Shown here in pieces: positions 10,981 through 59,869 of a stretch of DNA of 64,000 bases. The notes under the pieces are model-generated. The model searched no databases. It was given only the letters and a program-made list of their open reading frames with translations, and was not told where the DNA came from. Numbering within the stretch: position 1 is the first letter of the stretch; every line of letters starts with the position of its first letter. Position numbers and translations under genes: made by a program. The DNA comes from Candidatus Eiseniibacteriota bacterium (lineage in GTDB: Bacteria > Eisenbacteria > RBG-16-71-46 > JASEGR01). The stretch lies in NCBI GenBank assembly GCA_030017955.1, contig JASEGR010000003.1, forward strand, positions 6,508 through 70,507, in the 5' to 3' direction.

Positions 10981-11043
10981 AAATGCTTCCCGGCAATTGC
11001 CTTGGACGCGCCGTCGACACAGATAGGGAGGGCGGCAAATAGA

Positions 11044-11631
11044 ATGATAAGAATCAACCTTGTTCCAGAAGAAGATAGAGACCGAGGTGCGCTCGGTGAA
11101 AGGCCTCGCGCCATCTCCGTCTTTTCGAAATCATTTCTCACTGTCTCACTCTTCATTGTGTTCGCCGGGACATTTTTTCAGATCGAACAGGGGAGAAGGG
11201 TATCTGAAGCTCTCTCTGAACTGGAGAAGAACATTGAGTTGAGAAAGAAAACGTCTTCAGAGATTTTGACGAGAGAAAGGGAGCTGCTCAAGCTCAAGGA
11301 GTACTTTGCAGGGATTCAAAGTCTGACCGGACAAAGGGGAGTCCCGGTCCTGGTTCTGGAAGAACTCTCGAGAAAACTTCCCGGCGATCTTTGGTACACC
11401 AGCGTTTTCCAGAGCGGGTCCCGGGAGATAACTATCGAGGGAGTCTCTTTCTCAAATCTAAGGGTTGCCCAGCTGATGGGTGGAATAGACCGGTCCACAA
11501 TCTTCGAGGGTACGAAACTGCTGTATTCGGAGAAAGGCACGGTATCCGGGAGAGATGTTGTGAAATTCAAGCTTACGGCAGTAGTGAGCTTCGGCGGAGT
11601 CAGTGAGCCTGCCCCGAGGAGGAAAGGATGA
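11044..11631 (+). CDS. pilN: Type IV pilus assembly protein PilN
   Basis: MIRINLVPEE N-terminus (INLLP-type motif), a single TM and a coiled region. It sits between pilM and pilO. Confidence 0.8.
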   Translation: MIRINLVPEEDRDRGALGERPRAISVFSKSFLTVSLFIVFAGTFFQIEQGRRVSEALSELEKNIELRKKTSSEILTRERELLKLKEYFAGIQSLTGQRGVPVLVLEELSRKLPGDLWYTSVFQSGSREITIEGVSFSNLRVAQLMGGIDRSTIFEGTKLLYSEKGTVSGRDVVKFKLTAVVSFGGVSEPAPRRKG

Positions 11632-17668: not shown

Positions 17669-17900
17669 CATATTGCAACGAAAGCCGCACCGTCAGATCC
17701 CGTCAATCAGATCCGGCGGCCAGGCGTTTGCGTAGTTCTCCGGAGGAAATCTCCGGATTCGGCAGGGATGCGCGCTGGTTGGGCTTTCTGGGCATGATTC
17801 TGGCGCGCTAATCAACTGACTGCTTTTCACCGTTCTCTCACCGGATCTTCTGCGACTCTGCATGCCTTGAGGCTGCCGCGGACGGCGGCTGGTATGCAAT

Positions 17901-18323
17901 ATGCGACTCTCTCACTTGGAGGAGGTGGCGAATACCTTGAGAAGAACACCAGGTTTGAATCTCCTCTCTGAAAAGAGAGGTTTCACCCTCGTTGAGATTT
18001 GTGTCTCGTTCCTCCTAATGGCTCTCTTTTTTGCCGGGCTCGCCCAGTCATTCCCTCTCGCACTTAAGCTCGTGGTCGAGGGAAAGTTGCGAAATGAGGC
18101 CGCCGCGCTCGCCCAGGGAAAGATGGAGGAGCTCAAGTCGTACGGGTACGGGAGCGGCTTTCTCATTTCTGGATCCGATGAAGTTAGGGGGAAATACCGG
18201 AGAAGCTGGAATGTTACCCAGAATTCGCCGGTGCCGAGGATGAACGAGATAGTAGTCACCGTGAGCTGGAATCTGGGCTCGAAGGAACGCACTTTGGAGT
18301 TCAGGAACTATGTTGCACAGTAG
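17901..18323 (+). CDS. Minor pilin / pseudopilin with prepilin-type N-terminal cleavage-methylation domain
   Basis: The N-terminus RGFTLVEICVSFLLMALFFAG is a class III signal (G|FTLVE). Its 140-aa size is typical of PilV/GspI-like minor pilins. Confidence 0.7.
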   Translation: MRLSHLEEVANTLRRTPGLNLLSEKRGFTLVEICVSFLLMALFFAGLAQSFPLALKLVVEGKLRNEAAALAQGKMEELKSYGYGSGFLISGSDEVRGKYRRSWNVTQNSPVPRMNEIVVTVSWNLGSKERTLEFRNYVAQ

Positions 18324-36761: not shown

Positions 36762-36837
36762 GCGACCCTAGCTCAGTCGGTAGAGCACCAGACTGAAAAT
36801 CTGGGTGTCCGCAGTTCAATTCTGCGGGGTCGCACCA
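36762..36837 (+). tRNA. tRNA-Phe (anticodon GAA)
   Basis: Manual fold: acceptor GCGACCC/GGGTCGC, D-arm GCTCAGTCGGTAGAGC, anticodon stem CCAGA/TCTGG with loop CTGAAAA, T-arm CGCAG-TTCAATT-CTGCG, discriminator A, and an encoded CCA. Confidence 0.85.
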
Positions 36838-36948
36838 TTTCTTGAAGCCCACGAGGCCTGCAAAGACCGTCCTCGGGTTCCGGCTGCTGTTCCCTGGCTT
36901 AAGGCCTGCACATGCCTCGCCGAATCAGGGCAAAGTTCAAACGGAGAA

Positions 36949-37024
36949 GCTGGTGTAGCTCAGCAGGTAGAGCAACGCACTCGTAATGCGTAGGTCAGCG
37001 GTTCGATTCCGCTCACCAGCTCCA
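36949..37024 (+). tRNA. tRNA-Thr (anticodon CGT)
   Basis: Manual fold: acceptor GCTGGTG/CACCAGC, D-arm AGCTCAGCAGGTAGAGC, anticodon stem ACGCA/TGCGT with loop CTCGTAA, T-arm GCGGTTCGATTCCGC, and an encoded CCA. Confidence 0.85.
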
Positions 37025-37140
37025 CGTACAGACAGTCTCTCAAGTACTGAGAGGAATCGAAGCCGACCCGAGCGCCTCCTGTGGAGGATGAAGCGAGGGC
37101 GGCCGGCGACGGAGGAGGAGCGGGAGCGACGGGGGAGGAG

Positions 37141-37160
37141 GATTCCGCTCACCAGCTCCA
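37141..37160 (+). repeat. 20-nt direct repeat of the tRNA-Thr 3' end (att-like remnant)
   Basis: GATTCCGCTCACCAGCTCCA at 37141-37160 is identical to 37005-37024 (T-arm and acceptor 3' strand plus CCA of the tRNA-Thr). Confidence 0.6.
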
Positions 37161-37213
37161 GATGCTTGTTCCTTACCGAGTTGTGAATTGGATAATGCGA
37201 GAAGAGGCTAAAT

Positions 37214-38572
37214 GTGACTGCTGATCCGATTGTGAGCGTCTCCGGCGTAAGAGGCATTGTCGGGGAATCCCTGACGTCCGACTTTGCGCTCAGGCTTGGT
37301 TCAGCCTTTGGGACGACTCGCGGTGCCGGAAGGATAGTAGTCGGCAGAGATACCAGACCGTCCGGCAGAACACTCGTCCGGGCAGTCCTCGCCGGACTAT
37401 CATCCGTCGGATGTCACTGCATCGATACGGGAATTGTGCCCACACCAACCGTTCTCTGTATGGTCGGAGAAGCCGAAGCGAAGGGCGGCATCATCATTAC
37501 TGCCAGCCATAACGGGCCTGAGTGGAATGGCCTGAAATTTGTCTCCGGTGATGGAAGTTTCCTGGATGAGAAGGGAATGAAGGAAGTCGTGTCTCTTGCC
37601 GAGGGCCGCGACGGGTTTGCGTGGAAGGGATACAAGTCGCTTGGAGAATCCTGGCCGAATGCGTGGGCTCCATACCGGCACGTAAGAAGAATCACCGAAT
37701 CCAAGGCCATCGATGTCTGGGGTCTGAGAAAAAGGAACTTCTCAGTGGTTGCCGACTGCGTAAATGGAGCCGCATCTACCGTGCTTCCCGTTTTGCTGAG
37801 CGAGCTCGGCTGCAAGGTAAACCTGATCTTTGATTCCCTGAGCGGGGAGTTTCCTCGCGGCCCGGAACCGGTGGCTGAGAACATCGGTATGCTTGGTGAC
37901 GAGGTGAAGAAAAGAGGGGCGGATATTGGCTTTGCTTTTGACCCTGACGGGGATAGAATCAGTATCGTAGCGAGCAGTGGAAGACCTTTTGGAGAAGAGA
38001 ACTCCATTGTGCTTGCCTCCAGACTCATTCTCACGAAACTGGGAGGCACGCTCGTTGTGAACGCTTCCACGACATCTGCTGTCGATGAGATCGCCAGCCG
38101 GGCCGGCTGCAAAGTGGTGAGATCAAAAGTCGGTGAAAGAAACGTGGTCGAGCTCATGAGGAAGCACGGTGCAATTTTAGGCGGAGAGGGGAATGGCGGT
38201 GTGATTCTTCCACAGGTAAACTGGGGCAGGGATGGAATTGCCGCCTCGGCCCTTTTTCTTCAGGCTTTGCTTGAGTGGGGAGGCGACTCCGATACTCTCC
38301 TCGATTCCCTTCCAAAGTACTTCATGGTGAAGGAGAAGATTACCTGCGAAAAGCCGCTCAAAGAAGTTGAGGCAGTCCTGCTTGGTGCCTTTGCTCCCAC
38401 AAGCATAGATAGGACCGATGGGATAAAACTCTTTTTTGAGGATGGCTGGCTTCACGTTAGAAAATCCGGGACTGAGCCGGTTGTCAGGATCATGGGAGAG
38501 GCCAGGGTAAAAGGAAAAGCAGAGGCAATGGTCGGGGAAGCCATTTCCAGTCTTGGAAAGACCGGGGCGTGA
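37214..38572 (+). CDS. glmM: Phosphoglucosamine mutase / phosphohexomutase family (GlmM-like)
   Basis: GTG start. The N-terminus is VSVSGVRGIVGESLT, the active-site Ser loop is TASHNGPEWNGLK, and the metal-binding loop is DPDGDR. It lies adjacent to glmS. Confidence 0.75.
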   Translation: MTADPIVSVSGVRGIVGESLTSDFALRLGSAFGTTRGAGRIVVGRDTRPSGRTLVRAVLAGLSSVGCHCIDTGIVPTPTVLCMVGEAEAKGGIIITASHNGPEWNGLKFVSGDGSFLDEKGMKEVVSLAEGRDGFAWKGYKSLGESWPNAWAPYRHVRRITESKAIDVWGLRKRNFSVVADCVNGAASTVLPVLLSELGCKVNLIFDSLSGEFPRGPEPVAENIGMLGDEVKKRGADIGFAFDPDGDRISIVASSGRPFGEENSIVLASRLILTKLGGTLVVNASTTSAVDEIASRAGCKVVRSKVGERNVVELMRKHGAILGGEGNGGVILPQVNWGRDGIAASALFLQALLEWGGDSDTLLDSLPKYFMVKEKITCEKPLKEVEAVLLGAFAPTSIDRTDGIKLFFEDGWLHVRKSGTEPVVRIMGEARVKGKAEAMVGEAISSLGKTGA

Positions 38573-38687
38573 GAGAAAAGCGGATCACGAAGAGCGTGCA
38601 TCATGAGACTTTGTCAAGAACGGTGATACGAACTTAGTTTGCGGGCCGTTTGGATCTGGCAACCGAAGGCTGTAAAGGAGAAAAGCA

Positions 38688-40514
38688 ATGTGTGGAATTG
38701 TGGCTTATGTCGGCAAGAAAGAGTGCAAGCCTATTCTCCTCGAAGGCATAAAGAGGCTTGAGTACCGCGGATATGATTCGGCTGGCATAGCGATTATCGG
38801 AAAGGATGGAGTCCTAATCGAGAAAACGGCCGGGAAGATTGCAACCCTCGAGGCAAAACTTCTCTCAATCCCGATGTCTGGGACGTCGGGGGTCGCACAT
38901 ACGCGGTGGGCGACCCATGGTGAGCCGACGGATGAGAATGCCCATCCGCATCTTGACTGCAAGGGAGAGATTGCGGTTGTCCACAACGGAATCATCGAGA
39001 ATTACATGGTGCTGAAGAGCAAACTGGAGAGCGAGGGGCACAAGTTCAGGACCGAGACCGACACCGAAGTCCTTGCTCATTTCATAGAGAAATACTACTC
39101 CGGAGACCTTGTCGAAGCGGTTCGACAGACCCTCACGATGGTCGAAGGAACCTATGGCATTGCAGTCATATGTTCGAAGGAACCTGGCAGGGTCGTGGGT
39201 GCAAGAAATGGCAGTCCGCTGGTGGTTGGAATCGGCCGCGGAGAATATTTCCTCGCCTCAGACGTTTCCGCCGTCCTCAGACACACCAACCAGGTCATCT
39301 ATCTTGATGACAGGGAGCTCGTGGTGATTGACACCGAGGGATTCAGCACGTCCACGATTGAAAACGAGAAGGTTCATAAAACCATTGAGGAGGTTGAGTG
39401 GAATCTTGAAATGGCCGAGAAGGCCGGGTTCAAGCATTTCATGTTGAAAGAGATCTTTGAGCAGCCACAGTCCATAAAGAACACAATGAGGGGAAGGCTG
39501 ATCCTTGACGACGGTGGAGCAAGACTCGGCGGGCTTAATGCGGCCGAGTCCGAACTGAGGGCGGTCAACCGGATAATTATCACCGCCTGCGGGACCTCGT
39601 GGCATGCGGCTACGATTGGCGAGTACATGATTGAGGAACATGCCCGAATCCCGGTCGAAGTCGAGTACGCGTCCGAGTTCAGGTACAGAAACCCGGTCAT
39701 AAGAGACGGCACCGTTGTCATCGTGATAAGCCAGTCCGGCGAGACCGCTGACACCCTGGCCGCAATGAGGGAGGCCAAGCGCAAGGGTGCAAAGACATGG
39801 GGAATCTGTAACGTCGTCGGCAGCACGATCGCAAGGGAGGCAAGCGGAGGAATCTACATCCATGCGGGTCCCGAGATAGGCGTTGCCTCAACCAAAGCAT
39901 TCACGTCTCAGGTGGTGGCGCTTGCCGTTCTCACGGTGCTCCTCGGAAGGCTCAAATCCATGTCCAGAGATACCGGAAAGCAGATTGTGACCGAGCTTCT
40001 GAGGATACCCGGGAAGATGGAGCAGATTCTGAAGAAGAACAAGGAGATCGAATCCATTGCCGAGGAGTACTACAGGCACGAGAACTTCCTCTATCTCGGA
40101 AGGGGATACAACTTCCCAGTCGCCCTTGAAGGGGCGCTCAAGCTCAAGGAGATCTCATATATCCACGCGGAAGGATATCCTGCCGCTGAGATGAAACACG
40201 GGCCCATTGCATTGATCGACCAGAACATGCCTGTGGTCTTCATTTGCACAAAGGACAGCGCGTACGAGAAGATAATGAGCAACATGGAGGAAGTCAAAGC
40301 TAGAAAGGGCAGAATCATAGCAATCGCAAGCGAAGGAGACAAAGAAATCTCGAAGAAGACTGATCATGTCATTTACATTCCCGAGACGGTTGAGCTTCTT
40401 ACGCCGCTGCTTTCGGTGATTCCTCTCCAGCTGCTTGCCTATTACATCGCAGTAAAGAGAGGATGTGATGTTGACCAGCCGAGGAATCTTGCGAAATCCG
40501 TCACAGTCGAATAG
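38688..40514 (+). CDS. glmS: Glutamine--fructose-6-phosphate aminotransferase (isomerizing)
   Basis: The N-terminal nucleophile MCGIVAYVG marks the class II glutamine amidotransferase domain. Two SIS domains follow. The C-terminus is ...KSVTVE. Confidence 0.95.
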   Translation: MCGIVAYVGKKECKPILLEGIKRLEYRGYDSAGIAIIGKDGVLIEKTAGKIATLEAKLLSIPMSGTSGVAHTRWATHGEPTDENAHPHLDCKGEIAVVHNGIIENYMVLKSKLESEGHKFRTETDTEVLAHFIEKYYSGDLVEAVRQTLTMVEGTYGIAVICSKEPGRVVGARNGSPLVVGIGRGEYFLASDVSAVLRHTNQVIYLDDRELVVIDTEGFSTSTIENEKVHKTIEEVEWNLEMAEKAGFKHFMLKEIFEQPQSIKNTMRGRLILDDGGARLGGLNAAESELRAVNRIIITACGTSWHAATIGEYMIEEHARIPVEVEYASEFRYRNPVIRDGTVVIVISQSGETADTLAAMREAKRKGAKTWGICNVVGSTIAREASGGIYIHAGPEIGVASTKAFTSQVVALAVLTVLLGRLKSMSRDTGKQIVTELLRIPGKMEQILKKNKEIESIAEEYYRHENFLYLGRGYNFPVALEGALKLKEISYIHAEGYPAAEMKHGPIALIDQNMPVVFICTKDSAYEKIMSNMEEVKARKGRIIAIASEGDKEISKKTDHVIYIPETVELLTPLLSVIPLQLLAYYIAVKRGCDVDQPRNLAKSVTVE

Positions 40515-40666
40515 CAGAAGAATGGGAGAGCGTGACCGATGAGCCCGCTGGAGCGGACACAGATTCGCGGCCTTGCGGCTTGCCCTCTGCATAGGCGTGC
40601 CGCTCAGCTCGCATCACGGCCGCTGGAATTGTCCCGGGACCATGAGAAGAATGAGGGGAAAACAGT

Positions 40667-41050
40667 ATGAGAGAGATTAGGACTAACCAAGCCCCGGCCG
40701 CAATCGGGCCCTACAGCCAGGGAATCCAGGTCGAGCCCAAAAGGATGTTCTTCTTTTCCGGACAACTCGGAATCGACCCGCAGACAGGGAGCCTGGTGGC
40801 GGGCGGCATTGAAGCAGAGGTCAGGCAGGCTCTGACCAATGTGAAAAACCTGCTCTCATCAGAAGCGATGAATTTTGACAATGTGGTAAAAGTCACAGTC
40901 TTCCTCTCCGGAATGGAACATTTCGAAAGCATGAACAATATCTATTCAACACATTTCCTGAACTTTCGTCCTGCGAGAAGCTGCGTGGCCGTGAAGGGAC
41001 TACCGAAATCTGCCCTCGTCGAAATTGAGGTAGTCGCAGTGAAGGAGTGA
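40667..41050 (+). CDS. ridA: RidA/YjgF/TdcF family reactive-intermediate deaminase
   Basis: 127 aa. The motifs APAAIGPYSQG...GQLGIDP...RSCVAVKGLPK..VEIEVVA are diagnostic for the YjgF family. Confidence 0.85.
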   Translation: MREIRTNQAPAAIGPYSQGIQVEPKRMFFFSGQLGIDPQTGSLVAGGIEAEVRQALTNVKNLLSSEAMNFDNVVKVTVFLSGMEHFESMNNIYSTHFLNFRPARSCVAVKGLPKSALVEIEVVAVKE

Positions 41051-41414
41051 GTTGAGGCCCTGCGACCTCCTATTCCATGGGCTAGTGCACCGTAACATAA
41101 GTAAGTTGACATTCACATTGCCGCTGAACGGTGCACTGCTGGGGGTTTTAGGGGGTCGAGCCCGACCCCCTAAGGGGTTACAGTTGCGAAAGTTGCCGGT
41201 GGCAAGTTTCGAAACGTCATAGGGGCGATAGCCCCTGTGAAAGTGCTGGGTCACCCCATAATAAGTCCGTGAGTTTATGTGACACAGCACTAGGAGGCCC
41301 GAGCAGCAGGCAATCTCCAGAGTGAGCTACCCGGAAGCCCAGCTCCAGGAAGAATCAGGAGGCTGGGCTCAATCAGAAAAGGAGTAGGAGTAGACTTCAC
41401 CTCAATAAGAGGAG

Positions 41415-42470
41415 ATGGCGGTGACCAAAGAGGAACTGAGCCGGCTGACGCAGGAAGTCTCCTGCGCAGGCTGAGCGGCAAAACTGGGTCCGGCGGACCT
41501 TTCGAAAGTCCTTAAGACAGTCCCAAAGCAGAAGGACAAGCGGCTCCTGGTCGGGCTTCACACTTTGGATGATGCCGGCGTCTACAAAATCGGGAAAGAC
41601 CTGGCTATTGTCCAAACAGTCGATTTCTTTCCGCCGGTCGTGGACGATCCGTATGACTTTGGGATGATAGCTGCGGCGAACGCCCTCAGTGATGTGTACG
41701 CCATGGGAGGAACTCCGCTCACTGCAATGAGCATAGTCTGCTTTCCGAGCGAAAGAAAGAATATCGGAGTCCTCGCAAGAATTCTGAAGGGCGGGACCGA
41801 CAAACTCAGGGAAGCAGGCACAGTGCTCGTAGGCGGTCATTCTGTGAAGGACAATGAGCTCAAATTCGGTTTTTCCGTCACAGGGACAGTCAATCCGAGG
41901 AAAATCGTGTCCAATGCCGGAGCCAAGCCGGGAGACGCTTTGATACTCACAAAGCCTCTCGGCACCGGTGTTCTCACAACTGCGCTCAAAATGGGAATCT
42001 TGTCGGAAAATGGCAGAAGAACGGTGACCCGTGTCATGTCGTCGCTCAATTCCACTGCTTCGAGATTGATGTGTAAGTTCGGCGCTGATTCCTGTACGGA
42101 CATCACGGGTTTCGGTCTCGGAGGCCATGCCTGGGAGATGGCACGGGCAAGCAAAGTGACTCTTAGATTCTATTCGGCAAAAATCCCGGTTCTTCCAGGA
42201 GTCCGCGAGCTTGTTGAGAAAAAGTCCGTTCCCGGCGGGACAATATCCAACAAGGAATTTCTTAAAAGAGACGTATTGATCCACAGCTCTGCGGCGGGGC
42301 TATCCCCTCTGATATTCTTTGACCCGCAAACCTCCGGCGGCCTCCTGATCAGCATCAGTCAGAAGCGGACAGAAGCTCTATTGAAAGAACTTCGAAAGAG
42401 CGGGATAAGGGACGCGGCGCTTGTCGGGGAAGTGGTGAGAAGAAAGAAGGCGCTGGTTGAGGTTTTCTAG
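41415..42470 (+). CDS. selD: Selenide, water dikinase (selenophosphate synthetase) SelD - selenoprotein with in-frame TGA (Sec) at 41472-41474
   Basis: The ATG at 41415 gives MAVTKEELSRLTQEVSCAG-U-AAKLGPADLSKVLKTV...LDDAGVYKIG, which aligns with E. coli SelD [24 protein letters not shown]...RDDAAVYDLG. The TGA falls exactly at catalytic Cys17 and the conserved Lys follows 3 residues later. The hairpin GGUCC-GGC-GGACC starts 12 nt after the UGA, which is SECIS-like. The ORF-track version (TTG 41565) lacks the essential N-terminal motif. Confidence 0.8.
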
Positions 42471-42654
42471 CAGCGAGTGCGTGGAAGGGGGTTCCGGAAT
42501 AGAGGTTTTCTCAGTGTCTTCTGCGATTGGCCGGGAGCGAATGGGCTCTGGTGGGCCCCGAGGACTTCAAATCCTTAAGTCGGGCGCCAATACCGTCCGG
42601 GGTGGGTTCGATTCCCACGCGTTCCCGCCATCTCGTTCGTGGTCACAGCAAGGC

Positions 42655-43161
42655 TTGCGTGTGGCGCTTCTGGCTGCTCTCCTGCTTTGCGTCTTGGCGC
42701 AAGGATCTCCTGCTGCCGTCTCGACCGTGGACACCTCGAAGGCGGGATTTTTCGGTACTCCATTTTTTGTGATGATGAGGTCCGGCGTTATTCCTGGATG
42801 GGGACAGGTTCACAACCATAAGTACTTGAAGGGAGCGGGCGTGTTCCTTCTCGAAGGCGCACTGGCTTTCAAAATCTATGATGAGAACAGAAAGGTGAAT
42901 GACTATTGGACGAAGCATGTTGGCGCCGCCACCTACCCCGAGCAAGTACGTTACTTTGACCTCTACGCCTTTCATTACGACAGGCGAAGCAATTACATCT
43001 GGTGGCTTGCTGGTACCACAGTATTGAGCCTCGTTGATGCGTACGTTGACGCACATCTGAGAGGTTTTGACGAAGAGGTAGCGAGGGAAACTGCCGTTGA
43101 CCTTGCGGTCATACGCCGCAGCGGGGAGGCCGTAGCAGTAGTGGTGAGAAAGACATTCTAG
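42655..43161 (+). CDS. Secreted/membrane hypothetical protein with PGWGQ motif (DUF5683-like)
   Basis: A TTG start at 42655 (or GTG at 42661) gives the signal peptide [22 protein letters not shown]. The motif [16 protein letters not shown] resembles the DUF5683 P-G-x-G-Q signature. The ORF-track start at 42457 overlaps the selD 3' end and is probably too early. Confidence 0.4.
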
Positions 43162-43169
43162 AATCGAAG

Positions 43170-44978
43170 ATGGAAGAAAACTCAAATACAAGAAACTTCT
43201 GCATAATTGCCCATATTGACCATGGCAAGTCCACCCTTGCGGATAGATTTCTCGAGCTTACGGGAGCAATCCCGAAGAGCGAGATGAAGGAGCAGGTTCT
43301 GGACGACATGGATCTCGAACGAGAGCGGGGCATAACAATAAAATCGCACCCCGTCACTATGCATTACAAGGCAAAGGATGGGAACACGTACCTTCTGAAT
43401 CTGATAGATACCCCAGGTCATGTTGATTTTTGCTACGAAGTGTCGAGAAGTTTGGCGGCATGCGAGGGCGCAGTTCTTCTCGTTGATGCATCCCAGGGAG
43501 TCGAGGCGCAGACCATAAGCAACCTCTTCCTGGCCAGGGATGCGAACCTTGCAATTGTTCCCGTGATTAATAAAATCGACCTCCCAACGGCTCACATCTC
43601 GAACACAGTAAAAGAAATGATTGATGTGCTCAGCTCCAGGGAAGACGAAATAGTACTTGCAAGCGCGAAGGAGGGGACAGGAGTGGAAGAGATTCTTGAA
43701 GCGGTAATAACGAGAGTCCCTTCTCCGCCCGGCAGTTCGAGAGGTTTTCTCAAGGCGCTGATCTTCGATTCAGTTTTCGATCAGTTCAGAGGTGTTGTGC
43801 CCTACGTGAGAATCTTCGACGGCTCCGTGAAGACAGGGAAAAAGATCGTCCTCCTTTCCTCGATGAAGAGTTTTGAGGTTGTTGAAGTTGGAATCTTCAA
43901 GCCGGCGATGACGCCGGTTGATGAACTTCATGCCGGTGATGTCGGTTACATTGTGGCCGGGGTCAAGGATATACAGGATGCAAAGGTCGGAGACACCATC
44001 GGCGAGGAGGGTGATCCGGCGCCCACAGCGCTTCCCGGATACCGTCAGATGAAACCGATGGTATTCAGCGGGCTCTATCCCGTAAACGCTGAGGGATACG
44101 AGAACTTGCGAGATGCACTTGGCAAACTGTCGCTCAACGATGCATCCCTATCATATGAAGCGGAAAGTTCTGTGGCGCTCGGTTTCGGTTTCAGATGCGG
44201 GTTTCTCGGGCTTCTCCATCTTGAGATTGTGCAGGAACGCCTCGAGAGGGAGTATGATGTCAGCCTCGTCGCTACATTTCCCAGCGTCGGTTACAGAGTC
44301 GTTTTGAAAGACGGTACTTCAATCATGGTCCACAACCCCGTCAACATGCCTGCCCCGGGCAGAATTGACAGAATTGAGGAGCCCTACGTCAGCGCAGAGA
44401 TTATTACGCCGCCTGAGCATCTCGGGGGAATTCTGAAACTTGCACAGGAGAAAAGAGGTATATATGTGAGCATGGAGTTTCTTGAAGCAGACAGGGTGAG
44501 ACTCAAGTATCTAATGCCGTTGTCCGAGATCGTTGTCGATTTCTACGACAAGCTCAAATCCGTTTCAAGGGGATATGCATCATTTGACTATGAGTATGCA
44601 GCCCACAGGGAATCAAAACTCGTGAAACTTGATATACTCCTCAACGGCGACCCGGTCGATGCGCTTTCCCAGGTCGTCCACGACGAGAAGGCATACGAGA
44701 GAGGGAGAACCATAGCGTCCGCTCTGAGGAAACTTATCCCGAAGCACATGTTCCAGATTGCCATACAGGCAAGTATCGGCGGCAAAGTGATCGCGAGAGA
44801 AACAATCTCGGCATTGAGAAAAGACGTGACGGCAAAATGTTATGGAGGAGATATCACAAGAAAACGAAAGCTGCTTGAAAAGCAGAAGGAAGGGAAGAAG
44901 AGGATGAAACGGATTGGGAGTGTTGACATTCCCCAGGAAGCTTTCCTTTCCGTCTTGAGAAGCAGGGAAACCGGGTAG
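43170..44978 (+). CDS. lepA: Translation elongation factor 4 (LepA)
   Basis: The N-terminus is [20 protein letters not shown] with G-domain motifs DTPGH and NKID. The LepA-specific C-terminal domain ends ...[24 protein letters not shown]. Confidence 0.95.
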
Positions 44979-44987
44979 GAGGGAGCC

Positions 44988-45623
44988 GTGGCAAATAGGA
45001 AAGAGCTCAAGAAACGGTCTTTGAAAAGCACAGTCAGAGAGTATCTCGAGGCGATTGCCCTTGCGATTGTCGTTACGCTTTTCGTGAGGGCCTTCATTAT
45101 TCAAGCGTTCAGGATCCCGACTGGTTCGATGACCGATACTCTTCTCGAGGGGGATTTCCTTTTTGTCAGCAAGTTCATCTATGGCGCACAGGTCCCTTTC
45201 ACCAACTGGCATCTCCCCAAAATCAGAGAGCCGAGGCCGGGAGATATAATTGTCTTCAAATATCCCGAAGACCCGAAGAGGGATTTTATCAAGAGATGCG
45301 TGGCCGTTGGCGGGCAGACGATAGAGATTCGGAACAAAGAAATGTATGTAGACGGACGGAAGCAGAACGCCGGTTATGTGAAGCACGTCGATGATCGCAT
45401 ATACTCGGCATTCGAAAGCCCAAGAGACAATTTTGGGCCTTTCTATGTGCCAAAAGGATACCTTTTCATGATGGGTGATAACCGCGACAACAGTCACGAC
45501 AGCCGCTTCTGGGGTCCTCTTGATGAGAAACTCGTGAAGGGAGAGGCGCTCGTCCTTTACTGGTCATGGGACAGGGAGCATTTCAGACCAAGATTCAGCA
45601 GGCTATTTCACCTGATAAAATGA
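44988..45623 (+). CDS. lepB: Signal peptidase I
   Basis: N-terminal TM, catalytic Ser box IPTGSMTDTL, Lys box KRCVAVGGQTIE, and the GDNRDNSHDSR box. It forms the classic lepA-lepB pair. Confidence 0.9.
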   Translation: MANRKELKKRSLKSTVREYLEAIALAIVVTLFVRAFIIQAFRIPTGSMTDTLLEGDFLFVSKFIYGAQVPFTNWHLPKIREPRPGDIIVFKYPEDPKRDFIKRCVAVGGQTIEIRNKEMYVDGRKQNAGYVKHVDDRIYSAFESPRDNFGPFYVPKGYLFMMGDNRDNSHDSRFWGPLDEKLVKGEALVLYWSWDREHFRPRFSRLFHLIK

Positions 45624-45633
45624 GCGAGCACAT

Positions 45634-45669
45634 CCTCTCCCCTCTGGGGAGAGGACCGAGGTGAGGGGA
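45634..45669 (+). repeat. 36-nt palindromic REP-like element, copy 1 (contains SD + GTG start of hemW)
   Basis: CCTCTCCCCTCTGGGGAGAGGACCGAGGTGAGGGGA. The inverted repeat is CCTCTCCCC/GGGGAGAGG. It is near-identical to the copy at 49392-49427. Confidence 0.6.
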
Positions 45670-49391: not shown

Positions 49392-49427
49392 CCTCTCCCC
49401 CTCGGGGAGAGGATCAAGGTGAGGGGA
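49392..49427 (+). repeat. 36-nt palindromic REP-like element, copy 2
   Basis: CCTCTCCCCCTCGGGGAGAGGATCAAGGTGAGGGGA, flanked by an outer inverted repeat CCCCTCA...TGAGGGG. It sits in a ~410-nt gene-free region. Confidence 0.6.
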
Positions 49428-59285: not shown

Positions 59286-59449
59286 GCGTGTTTGAGTGCA
59301 AGAAAGTCCTTGACTGTAGGGCGGCTGTCTTGTAGAATGGCAGTGTTGGTTCCGGAGAATGTGTTCGAAAGTGCCAAAACAGAATAATGACAAAGTCTAA
59401 AGGGGCTAAGGTTGCCCCTAATTTTTTGTGAAAGGAGGTTGGGAAGAAG

Positions 59450-59653
59450 ATGCCAGAAAAAGGCCGTGTTAAGTGGTTCAATGAGACCAAGGGATTTGGT
59501 TTCATTGAGCGCACAAATGGCCCGGACGTGTTCGTGCACTATTCTGCAATCGCTGGAGAAGGATTCAGAAGCCTCGAAGAAGGTCAAGAAGTGCAGTTTG
59601 ACGTCACGGAGACCCCAAAAGGGTTGCAGGCAACAAACGTAGTCAAAATATAG
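59450..59653 (+). CDS. cspA: Cold-shock protein (CspA family)
   Basis: [30 protein letters not shown] contains the RNP1/RNP2 motifs. 67 aa with a strong RBS. Confidence 0.95.
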
Positions 59654-59678
59654 ATGTAAATCATCTTATTTGACTGAA

Positions 59679-59714
59679 GGGCTCCGGCCTCCAGGCTGGA
59701 GCCCTAGTTTTTTT
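59679..59714 (+). terminator. Rho-independent terminator after cspA
   Basis: An 11-bp GC-rich stem (GGGCTCCGGCC / GGCTGGAGCCC, one G.U) with loop TCCA is followed by TTTTTTT at 59708-59714. Confidence 0.75.
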
Positions 59715-59869
59715 GTCCGACGGTCCTCGAGCTGGCATCGGTTCCCCGGCCGCGAAAACCGGATTGACACTGTCCCGCAGAGTTGCTACCGTGCGCTTAC
59801 TTCTGAGTGGCAGTCGGCATGTCAACGTCCGAACCAGAAGGCGCAATTCCCCTAACGCGAGGTGGAGAA

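Follow-up and report, generated by a model that had tools for sequence, protein, structure and literature searches.

Why should 364 nt without a gene lie between ridA and selD, two genes that in related bacteria overlap or sit 34 nt apart? The question is raised by a 64,000-nt stretch of contig JASEGR010000003.1 (Candidatus Eiseniibacteriota), referred to below as the window, in which a hairpin-dense spacer separates ridA, encoding a Rid family deaminase, from selD, encoding selenide, water dikinase as a selenocysteine (Sec)-type protein. An earlier note on this DNA had proposed that the spacer is a structured RNA or a riboregulator. The first part of the proposal stands: the spacer is non-coding and folds far better than expected by chance (z about -7), with high pair probabilities. 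The second part, with its likening to attenuators and riboswitches, is not supported, as we found no terminator, no plus-strand promoter and no switch acting on the Shine-Dalgarno (SD) sequence of selD, and as the element is absent in relatives. Judged by the arrangement of these genes in other Eisenbacteria, the spacer is a derived, lineage-specific insertion that fills exactly the interval from the ridA stop to the selD start. We tentatively interpret it as a co-transcribed, structured intercistronic leader of selD and the tRNA-Sec gene selC that would replace translational coupling and may serve as a processing or stability element. An origin without function is almost as likely.

The evidence for structure is quantitative. 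The minimum free energy (MFE) of the spacer is -157.6 kcal/mol, as compared to -120.4 ± 5.2 kcal/mol for dinucleotide shuffles (z -7.1), and 0 of 100 shuffles folded equally well. Across the window, z-scores were computed gap by gap and, in addition, for 24 random segments of 364 nt. All these segments and 14 other intergenic gaps remained above z -2.7, bar a single gap flanking csp (cold-shock protein), which holds a canonical terminator. Perfect hairpins of at least 9 bp are scarce in the window, occurring at six sites in total. The z-score and the outlying position among the gaps thus bear out the view that the hairpin density exceeds chance. All stems listed in the earlier note exist, their coordinates being off by 1–3 nt at most, and two helices had been overlooked, namely hairpin E and a long-range helix that closes the entire domain.

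In the predicted fold, this long-range helix encloses seven hairpins, A to G (Table 1), to form one closed domain. Six local hairpins reach pair probabilities of 0.9–0.99, and the closing helix, with a probability of 0.89, is kept when the end of ridA and the start of selD are added; the core fold is likewise unaltered by these flanks. The large loop of hairpin A contains the hexamer TTGACA at 41106-41111 and the motif CAUAAGUAAGU at 41096-41106. Hairpins A and E agree in the 5 bp at the base of the stem (AGUGC/GCACU) and in a loop motif, CAUAA(G)UAAGU, which occurs three times in the window as compared to 0.06 expected. Hairpin C consists of 5+5 bp flanking one G.G mismatch, with 3 additional basal bp. 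In the predicted fold, three internal SD-like AGGAG(G) motifs all pair to partners of the CUCC type, the second of them being sequestered in the 3' arm of hairpin G. Around hairpin B, the earlier note had seen mutually exclusive pairings. Such pairings do exist, but they are 5–12 kcal/mol weaker than hairpin B and hence no match for it in stability. Hairpin B is not followed by a U-tract, the sequence AAGGGGUUACAG standing there instead.

The spacer does not code for protein. Each of the three plus-strand frames contains several stops, and the two longest open reading frames (ORFs), of 56 aa on the plus strand and 96 aa on the minus strand, have codon scores of -0.34 and -0.23, respectively, which resemble off-frame sequence (-0.41 ± 0.19) rather than genes (+0.28 ± 0.11). 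The statement that 41051-41414 holds no credible ORF is therefore borne out, and a small ORF or small selenoprotein was rejected. The assignment of the flanking genes is equally secure, given the 100% identity of RidA to a database protein and an in-frame UGA of selD with, after it, a Sec insertion sequence (SECIS) hairpin that is conserved in relatives.

To place the spacer in its phylogenetic context, the locus can be compared with those of relatives. On sequence evidence, the source is a very isolated, deep-branching, low-GC lineage of Candidatus Eisenbacteria. RidA and LepA of the window are each 100% identical to proteins of a Candidatus Eisenbacteria bacterium metagenome-assembled genome, the next-best RidA being 57% and the next-best LepA 67% identical; an exact look-up of the window RidA returned no record. 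A search of 5.8 billion protein clusters yielded no more than two close relatives of SelD, with 92% and 80% identity (L011 and L012), both on 1.2-kb contigs, of which one begins 8 nt into selD and the other 22 nt before its start. The GC content is ~53%, as compared to 70–73% in other Eisenbacteria.

Six Eisenbacteria loci were collected around LepA homologues (L031–L036), of which L034 starts inside the DUF5683 gene and thus does not reach the junction. The other five share the gene order tRNA-Phe, tRNA-Thr, glmM, glmS, ridA, selD where present, tRNA-Sec, DUF5683, lepA, lepB. In L033 (Cys-type selD) and L036 (Sec-type selD, with a SECIS of the same kind as in the window), ridA and selD overlap by 4 nt in the tetranucleotide GTGA; in L035 (Sec-type selD), the gap measures 34 nt. 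L031 and L032 have no selD at the locus, and ridA is separated from tRNA-Sec by 35 and 24 nt, respectively. The corresponding ridA-selD gap of the window is 364 nt, or 370 nt if GTG 41421 is the selD start. Because the relatives' genes overlap by 4 nt or sit 34 nt apart, this comparison identifies the spacer as the derived state. In other Eisenbacteria, too, selC follows selD, and by this comparison the selD-tRNA-Sec module is ancestral at this position. The ridA stop codon TGA (41048-41050) still lies within a GTGA tetranucleotide (41047-41050), like the ridA/selD overlap of relatives. Conservation in related genomes, to which the earlier note had tied its proposal, was not found: the structure is not conserved at phylum level, and the spacer is absent from all five Eisenbacteria loci covering the junction as well as from 30 other selD loci. 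As a separate observation, the conserved co-directional cluster of tRNA and protein genes spans 36762-45623 of the window.

In the start region of selD, the SD AAGAGGAG directly abuts ATG 41415 (0 nt) and is spaced by 6 nt from GTG 41421. In the 80% identical relative L012, GGAGGAG is likewise followed by 6 nt and GTG, and ACG takes the place of the ATG. GTG 41421 is thus probably the true selD start, as L012 keeps the SD, the 6-nt spacing and the GTG without the ATG. The same retention, compared between the two start regions, shows that a leader rather than a ridA overlap predates the split of the window and L012 lineages. While SD and GTG are retained in L012, the sequence immediately 5' of the SD is not.

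We found no plus-strand promoter, no terminator and no switch signal in the spacer. A plus-strand sigma-70-like promoter was not detected in 40500-41420, and the TTGACA in the loop of hairpin A was rejected as a promoter, having no -10 box at 16–19 nt; other parts of the window do contain clear TTGACA-17-TAnnnT promoters, as at csp. An intrinsic terminator was not detected in 40600-41700, including one that would serve ridA; this genome does have canonical intrinsic terminators, one of them after csp. The selD SD lies outside the closed domain in the predicted fold, where a weak 4-bp local hairpin at most touches it, and folds with flanks revealed no strong alternative structure sequestering it. 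A riboswitch or attenuator platform is accordingly not evident, there being no terminator and no SD-sequestering helix with a similarly stable competitor.

Searches for known elements were also negative. At gathering thresholds, Rfam 15 matched only two tRNAs and tRNA-Sec in the whole window, and at E ≤ 10 it returned just two chance-level matches in 40900-41600 (SNORD98, 16.6 bits; fiv_FSE, 14.1 bits). No riboswitch, T-box, RNase P, SRP, tmRNA, 6S, ribozyme or SECIS family thus reached its threshold in the spacer, which the earlier note had likewise been unable to match by eye to RNase P RNA, SRP RNA, tmRNA or a riboswitch consensus. ARAGORN found no tRNA or tmRNA in 40900-41600, and a degenerate tRNA-Sec copy was rejected, as local alignment to the neighbouring tRNA-Sec was no better than for shuffles. 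There is no second copy of the spacer within the 64-kb window, no blastn match in plasmids and phages, no homologue by nhmmer or blastn in 36 fetched loci (293 kb in total), and no match to the hairpin B palindrome pattern in metagenome contigs. SelD relatives in GTDB species genomes reach at most 50% identity and have no homologous upstream RNA; the low z-scores upstream of selD in two of these loci (L003, L004) are due to tRNA-Sec. A metagenome scan with an alignment of the SelD N-terminus yielded 18 loci with at most 67% identity, whose upstream structures are accounted for by tRNA-Sec and by glycine riboswitches on the minus strand. A literature search on Eisenbacteria and selenocysteine found no papers. 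Independently of the spacer, three distant selD loci carry tRNA-Sec directly 5' of selD and, in the same intergenic region, the glycine riboswitch of a divergent gene on the minus strand (L014 4467-4560, L016 5501-5600, L028 4709-4803).

How could such an element work? In the leader reading that we cautiously favour, ~364–370 nt would have been inserted exactly at the ridA-selD junction in this low-GC lineage. The spacer would most probably be transcribed by read-through from ridA, which is the simplest assumption because no plus-strand promoter or terminator is recognisable. The resulting RNA would fold into the closed domain 41067-41390 with six or seven stable hairpins, sequestering the three SD-like AGGAG(G) motifs and leaving the selD SD (41407-41414) and GTG 41421 in the 3' tail. 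The spacer should thereby break the ancestral translational coupling of ridA and selD, and selD would gain a constitutive, SD-driven initiation of its own. Furthermore, the stable stems, along with two A/U-rich hairpin loops (A and E), may constitute an mRNA processing or stability barrier between glmM-glmS-ridA and selD-tRNA-Sec, on a transcript that would already need cutting by tRNA-maturing nucleases. That the spacer is transcribed, which of its strands is relevant and what it does to stability, processing or translation are inferred.

Several points weigh against this leader reading. The element is known from one sequence. The reverse strand of the spacer has a z between -5.6 and -7.3, and the MFE of the plus strand (-157.6 kcal/mol) is hardly lower than that of the minus strand (-153.4 kcal/mol), with 10 G.U pairs on each. 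Because both strands fold near-equally, with the same number of G.U pairs, the modelled stems amount to DNA palindromes, and no functional strand can be read from the fold; an assignment via G.U asymmetry was uninformative. Stems equally stable on both strands would likewise leave selection at the RNA level unproven. Near-perfect stems would also be the expected product of a recent mutational origin without function. Moreover, spacer growth needs no function in this operon, because two further spacers are enlarged yet unstructured: the glmM-glmS spacer (38573-38687) measures 115 nt (z -0.7) as compared to 5–67 nt in other Eisenbacteria, and the glmS-ridA spacer (40515-40666) 152 nt (z ~+1) as compared to -4 to 25 nt. 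Finally, the suggested role in stability or processing is an analogy, not a result.

The alternative that survives best is a neutral or selfish insertion without RNA function, which we regard as almost as likely. According to this explanation, the spacer would be the relic of a mobile element, resembling miniature inverted-repeat transposable elements (MITEs) or palindrome-associated transposable elements (PATEs), or a set of palindromes produced by template switching during replication, in which one event suffices for a perfect inverted repeat, and it would have been tolerated because an SD for selD was brought along or kept. A lineage-specific insertion at a junction that is overlapping or just 34 nt wide in relatives, near-perfect Watson-Crick stems of equal stability on both strands, the lack of a family match anywhere searched and the enlarged neighbouring spacers are all consistent with such an origin. 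That template switching both generates perfect hairpin stems and keeps them perfect has been documented (PMC8794818), and the genome has a short hairpin repeat family elsewhere. In addition, excising 41051-41424 would restore the ancestral GTGA stop/start overlap, and the 4-nt GTGA repeat at 41047-41050 and 41421-41424 is compatible with a target duplication, although it is not significant. Against this, the formal signs of mobility are lacking. The best end-to-end score for terminal inverted repeats is 22, which 22 of 500 shuffles matched (not significant); apart from the 4-nt repeat, the only flanking direct repeat is AGGAGT, equalled in 228 of 500 shuffles; and internal direct repeats within the spacer do not exceed the shuffle level. 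The 64 kb hold no second copy, the hairpins are mutually unlike, in contrast to a REP/BIME cluster, and gene order revealed no mobility gene (such as a transposase or integrase) among the neighbours glmM, glmS, ridA, selD, DUF5683, lepA and lepB. A neutral origin also leaves unexplained the long-range helix that closes all hairpins and the pairing of every internal SD-like motif. A MITE is not supported, since neither terminal inverted repeats nor a target-site duplication are significant, and a tandem-duplication origin or a two-unit architecture is unsupported.

A cis-acting riboregulator of selD-selC, such as a riboswitch-like or protein-binding leader responding to selenium status or SelB, appears unlikely. 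What speaks for it is the location of a large, defined fold directly 5' of a selenoprotein gene that is co-located with tRNA-Sec, and the precedent of the E. coli selAB 5' untranslated region (UTR), which contains a SECIS-like operator bound by SelB (PMC13449736). The apex of hairpin C, CC-GGU-GG, resembles that of the selD SECIS, CC-GGC-GG; several SD- and anti-SD-like motifs could in principle re-pair; and the common base and loop motif of hairpins A and E might mark two sites for one factor. However, R1, a covariance model built from 7 selD SECIS sequences, finds the true SECIS (41483-41503, 31 bits) but, even unfiltered and at E ≤ 10, returns no match in 41051-41414, hairpin C included. 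There are 28 occurrences of the heptamer CCGGYGG across the window, and hairpin C sits ~200 nt from the selD SD, as compared to 3 nt for the E. coli operator. A SECIS-like decoy or SelB operator in the spacer is therefore unsupported. There is also no terminator, no strong SD-sequestering alternative and no Rfam riboswitch match, and the element occurs neither in the phylum's other loci with a Sec-type selD nor in 25 selD loci of more distant origin. A more specific and slightly more doubtful version is that a recently evolved ~320-nt orphan RNA, with its seven hairpins and long-range helix, is a dedicated regulator of selD and tRNA-Sec in this one lineage. Its signal could be selenium or Sec-tRNA status, or it could act by binding a lineage-specific protein via the loop motif of hairpins A and E. 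If true, this would be the first known case of an RNA leader that controls selenophosphate synthetase.

The selD SECIS itself is well defined. The hairpin GGGUCC-GGC-GGACCU at 41486-41500 is conserved in relatives, and the selenoprotein gene shows UGA, an 11-nt spacer and a GGGUCC-GGN-GGACCU hairpin in the window, L011, L012, L035, L036, L003 and L004. In the alignment, the stem displays a compensatory change from G-C to A-U between Eisenbacteria and Dehalococcoidia loci. R1 had one further, sub-significant match on the plus strand (11349-11369, 15.4 bits, E 0.08) inside the uninterrupted ORF 11002-11631, which is probably due to chance.

That the spacer is a non-coding RNA gene in its own right, small or medium-sized and on either strand, is highly unlikely. 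Its closed, multi-stem architecture of ~320 nt does resemble stand-alone structured RNAs, the minus strand folds almost equally well and carries a weak sigma-70-like site, GTGTCA-16-TATTAT (41285 to 41258). This site, however, lies inside hairpin E and scores 9/12, a level equally often reached by shuffles, and there is no plus-strand promoter, no terminator on either strand, no Rfam family and no homologue in the collections searched. Least probable, and very unlikely, is a DNA-level array of palindromic operator or recombination sites, for although the Watson-Crick palindromes are symmetric on both strands and AGTGC...GCACT arms are common to A and E, the arms are separated by 3–4 nt or 24–34 nt and unrelated in sequence, unlike repeated operators, and there is no promoter to regulate and no regulator or recombinase gene seen among the neighbours. 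No positive evidence backs the riboregulator, the separate RNA gene or the site array.

Table 1. Coordinates of the spacer, its predicted helices and the flanking genes in the window (P, pair probability).
Feature	Position	Strand	Details
ridA (Rid family deaminase)	40667-41050	+	PF01042; 100% identity to NCBI MDI6807527.1
Non-coding hairpin-dense spacer	41051-41414	+	Between ridA stop and selD start
Closed multi-hairpin domain	41067-41390	+	10-bp helix CUCCUAUUCC 41067-76 / GGAGUAGGAG 41381-90, one G.U; encloses hairpins A-G
Hairpin A	41084-93/41128-37	+	10-bp perfect stem AGUGCACCGU/ACGGUGCACU, 34-nt loop, P 0.98
Hairpin B	41147-58/41163-74	+	12-bp G/C-rich stem (11 perfect Watson-Crick), loop AGCC, -21.8 kcal/mol, P 0.92
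Hairpin C	41183-41215	+	CGAAAGUUGCC-GGU-GGCAAGUUUCG, arms 41187-97/41201-11, P 0.99
Hairpin D	41217-26/41231-40	+	10-bp stem UCAUAGGGGC/GCCCCUGUGA, one U.G, loop GAUA, z -6.4, P 0.99
Hairpin E	41242-54/41279-91	+	13-bp stem, one mismatch, 24-nt loop with CAUAAUAAGU 41257-66
Hairpin F (weaker)	41293-41318	+	SD-like GGAGG paired to UCUCC, P 0.72
Hairpin G	41336-46/41358-69	+	8+3 bp, AGCCCAGC-UCC / GGA-G-GCUGGGCU, P 0.91
selD translation start region	41407-41423	+	SD AAGAGGAG 41407-14, ATG 41415, GTG 41421; 3' of closed domain
selD (selenide, water dikinase), Sec-type	41415-42470	+	In-frame UGA 41472-74, SECIS hairpin
tRNA-Sec (selC)	42533-42626	+	Rfam RF01852, 68.3 bits; 62 nt 3' of selD

Some further features of the window, in which the plus strand carries nearly all genes, deserve mention in their own right. 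An ORF at 42457-43161 overlaps tRNA-Sec; the DUF5683-family gene probably starts at TTG 42655 or GTG 42661, with a signal-peptide-like start. A hairpin repeat of ~45 nt, CCTCTCCCC-loop-GGGGAGAGGAYCRAGGTGAGGGGA, occurs at 45633-45669 and 49392-49427 on the plus strand (2 found, 0 expected). Both copies stand just 3' of plus-strand genes and look REP-like or terminator-like; the repeat is unrelated to the spacer. The csp region (59300-59715) comprises a promoter TTGACT-17-TAGAAT (59310-59338), a match to the Rfam cspA thermoregulator that stays below threshold (52 bits as compared to a gathering score of 78), a 5'-UTR hairpin with a U-run (59401-59430) and a canonical intrinsic terminator (~59678-59715). 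A REP-like 'TAGGGG...CCCCT' family was rejected, as its extra match at 59401 is this 5'-UTR hairpin and the count of the core pattern is not significant. At 17868-17900, a TGA is followed at once by an 8-bp G/C hairpin, GGCUGCCG-CGGA-CGGCGGCU, before the ORF that begins at 17901, a spacing that is wrong for a SECIS.

In sum, the element is unusual and suggestively placed, yet only a single sequence of it is known, the rest of the phylum lacks it and it has no switch architecture. If functional, it would offer a datable case of a coupled gene pair separated by a newly arisen structured RNA domain, datable inasmuch as sister lineages still show the ancestral overlap of stop and start codons by 4 nt. 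The gene selD, whose UGA-Sec codon makes its translation depend on its own product, would also gain its first reported leader element. If neutral, it would show that an intergenic folding z of -7 alone does not indicate a regulatory RNA, a caution for structure-based screens for non-coding RNAs, and that perfect hairpins can accumulate through insertion or template switching. The practical value is limited as long as the element is known from one sequence.

How does the spacer relate to known systems? Like the E. coli selAB operator (PMC13449736), it places a hairpin in the leader of a selenocysteine-machinery gene, and hairpin C has a small loop starting with GG, like the selD SECIS of this clade; the two differ in their distance from the SD, as given above, and in the gene concerned, which is selD here and not selAB. 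With MITEs and the IS200-IS605-derived PATEs, the spacer has in common that it is a short (100–400 bp), hairpin-rich, non-coding intergenic insertion, with a possible 4-nt GTGA duplication and the similar hairpins A and E in the same orientation. Unlike them, it has no significant terminal inverted repeats, extra copies or related transposase, and hairpin E is not subterminal.

OLE, GOLLD, ROOL, raiA and T-box RNAs are classes defined by conservation and covariation across many genomes. The spacer resembles them in exceeding 300 nt, in arranging many helices round a junction closed by a terminal helix and in its very low z, but it matches none at E ≤ 10 and is found in a single genome, being absent from the rest of the phylum. 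REP/BIME (E. coli), ERIC (enterobacterial), Correia (Neisseria) and BOX (pneumococcal) elements are multi-copy families with shared sequence, whereas the spacer occurs as a single copy in 64 kb, and its seven hairpins are unrelated in sequence to each other and to the ~45-nt repeat of this genome. It is also larger and more ornate than a REP cluster, comprising 364 nt and a closing long-range helix. Nevertheless, the spacer is like these elements in being non-coding, co-directional with its operon and lineage-restricted, in forming very stable, near-perfect stem-loops and in having no promoter or terminator of its own. By analogy with REP/BIME-type elements, we would expect it to be co-transcribed with its neighbours, and any effect that it has should concern mRNA stability or processing.

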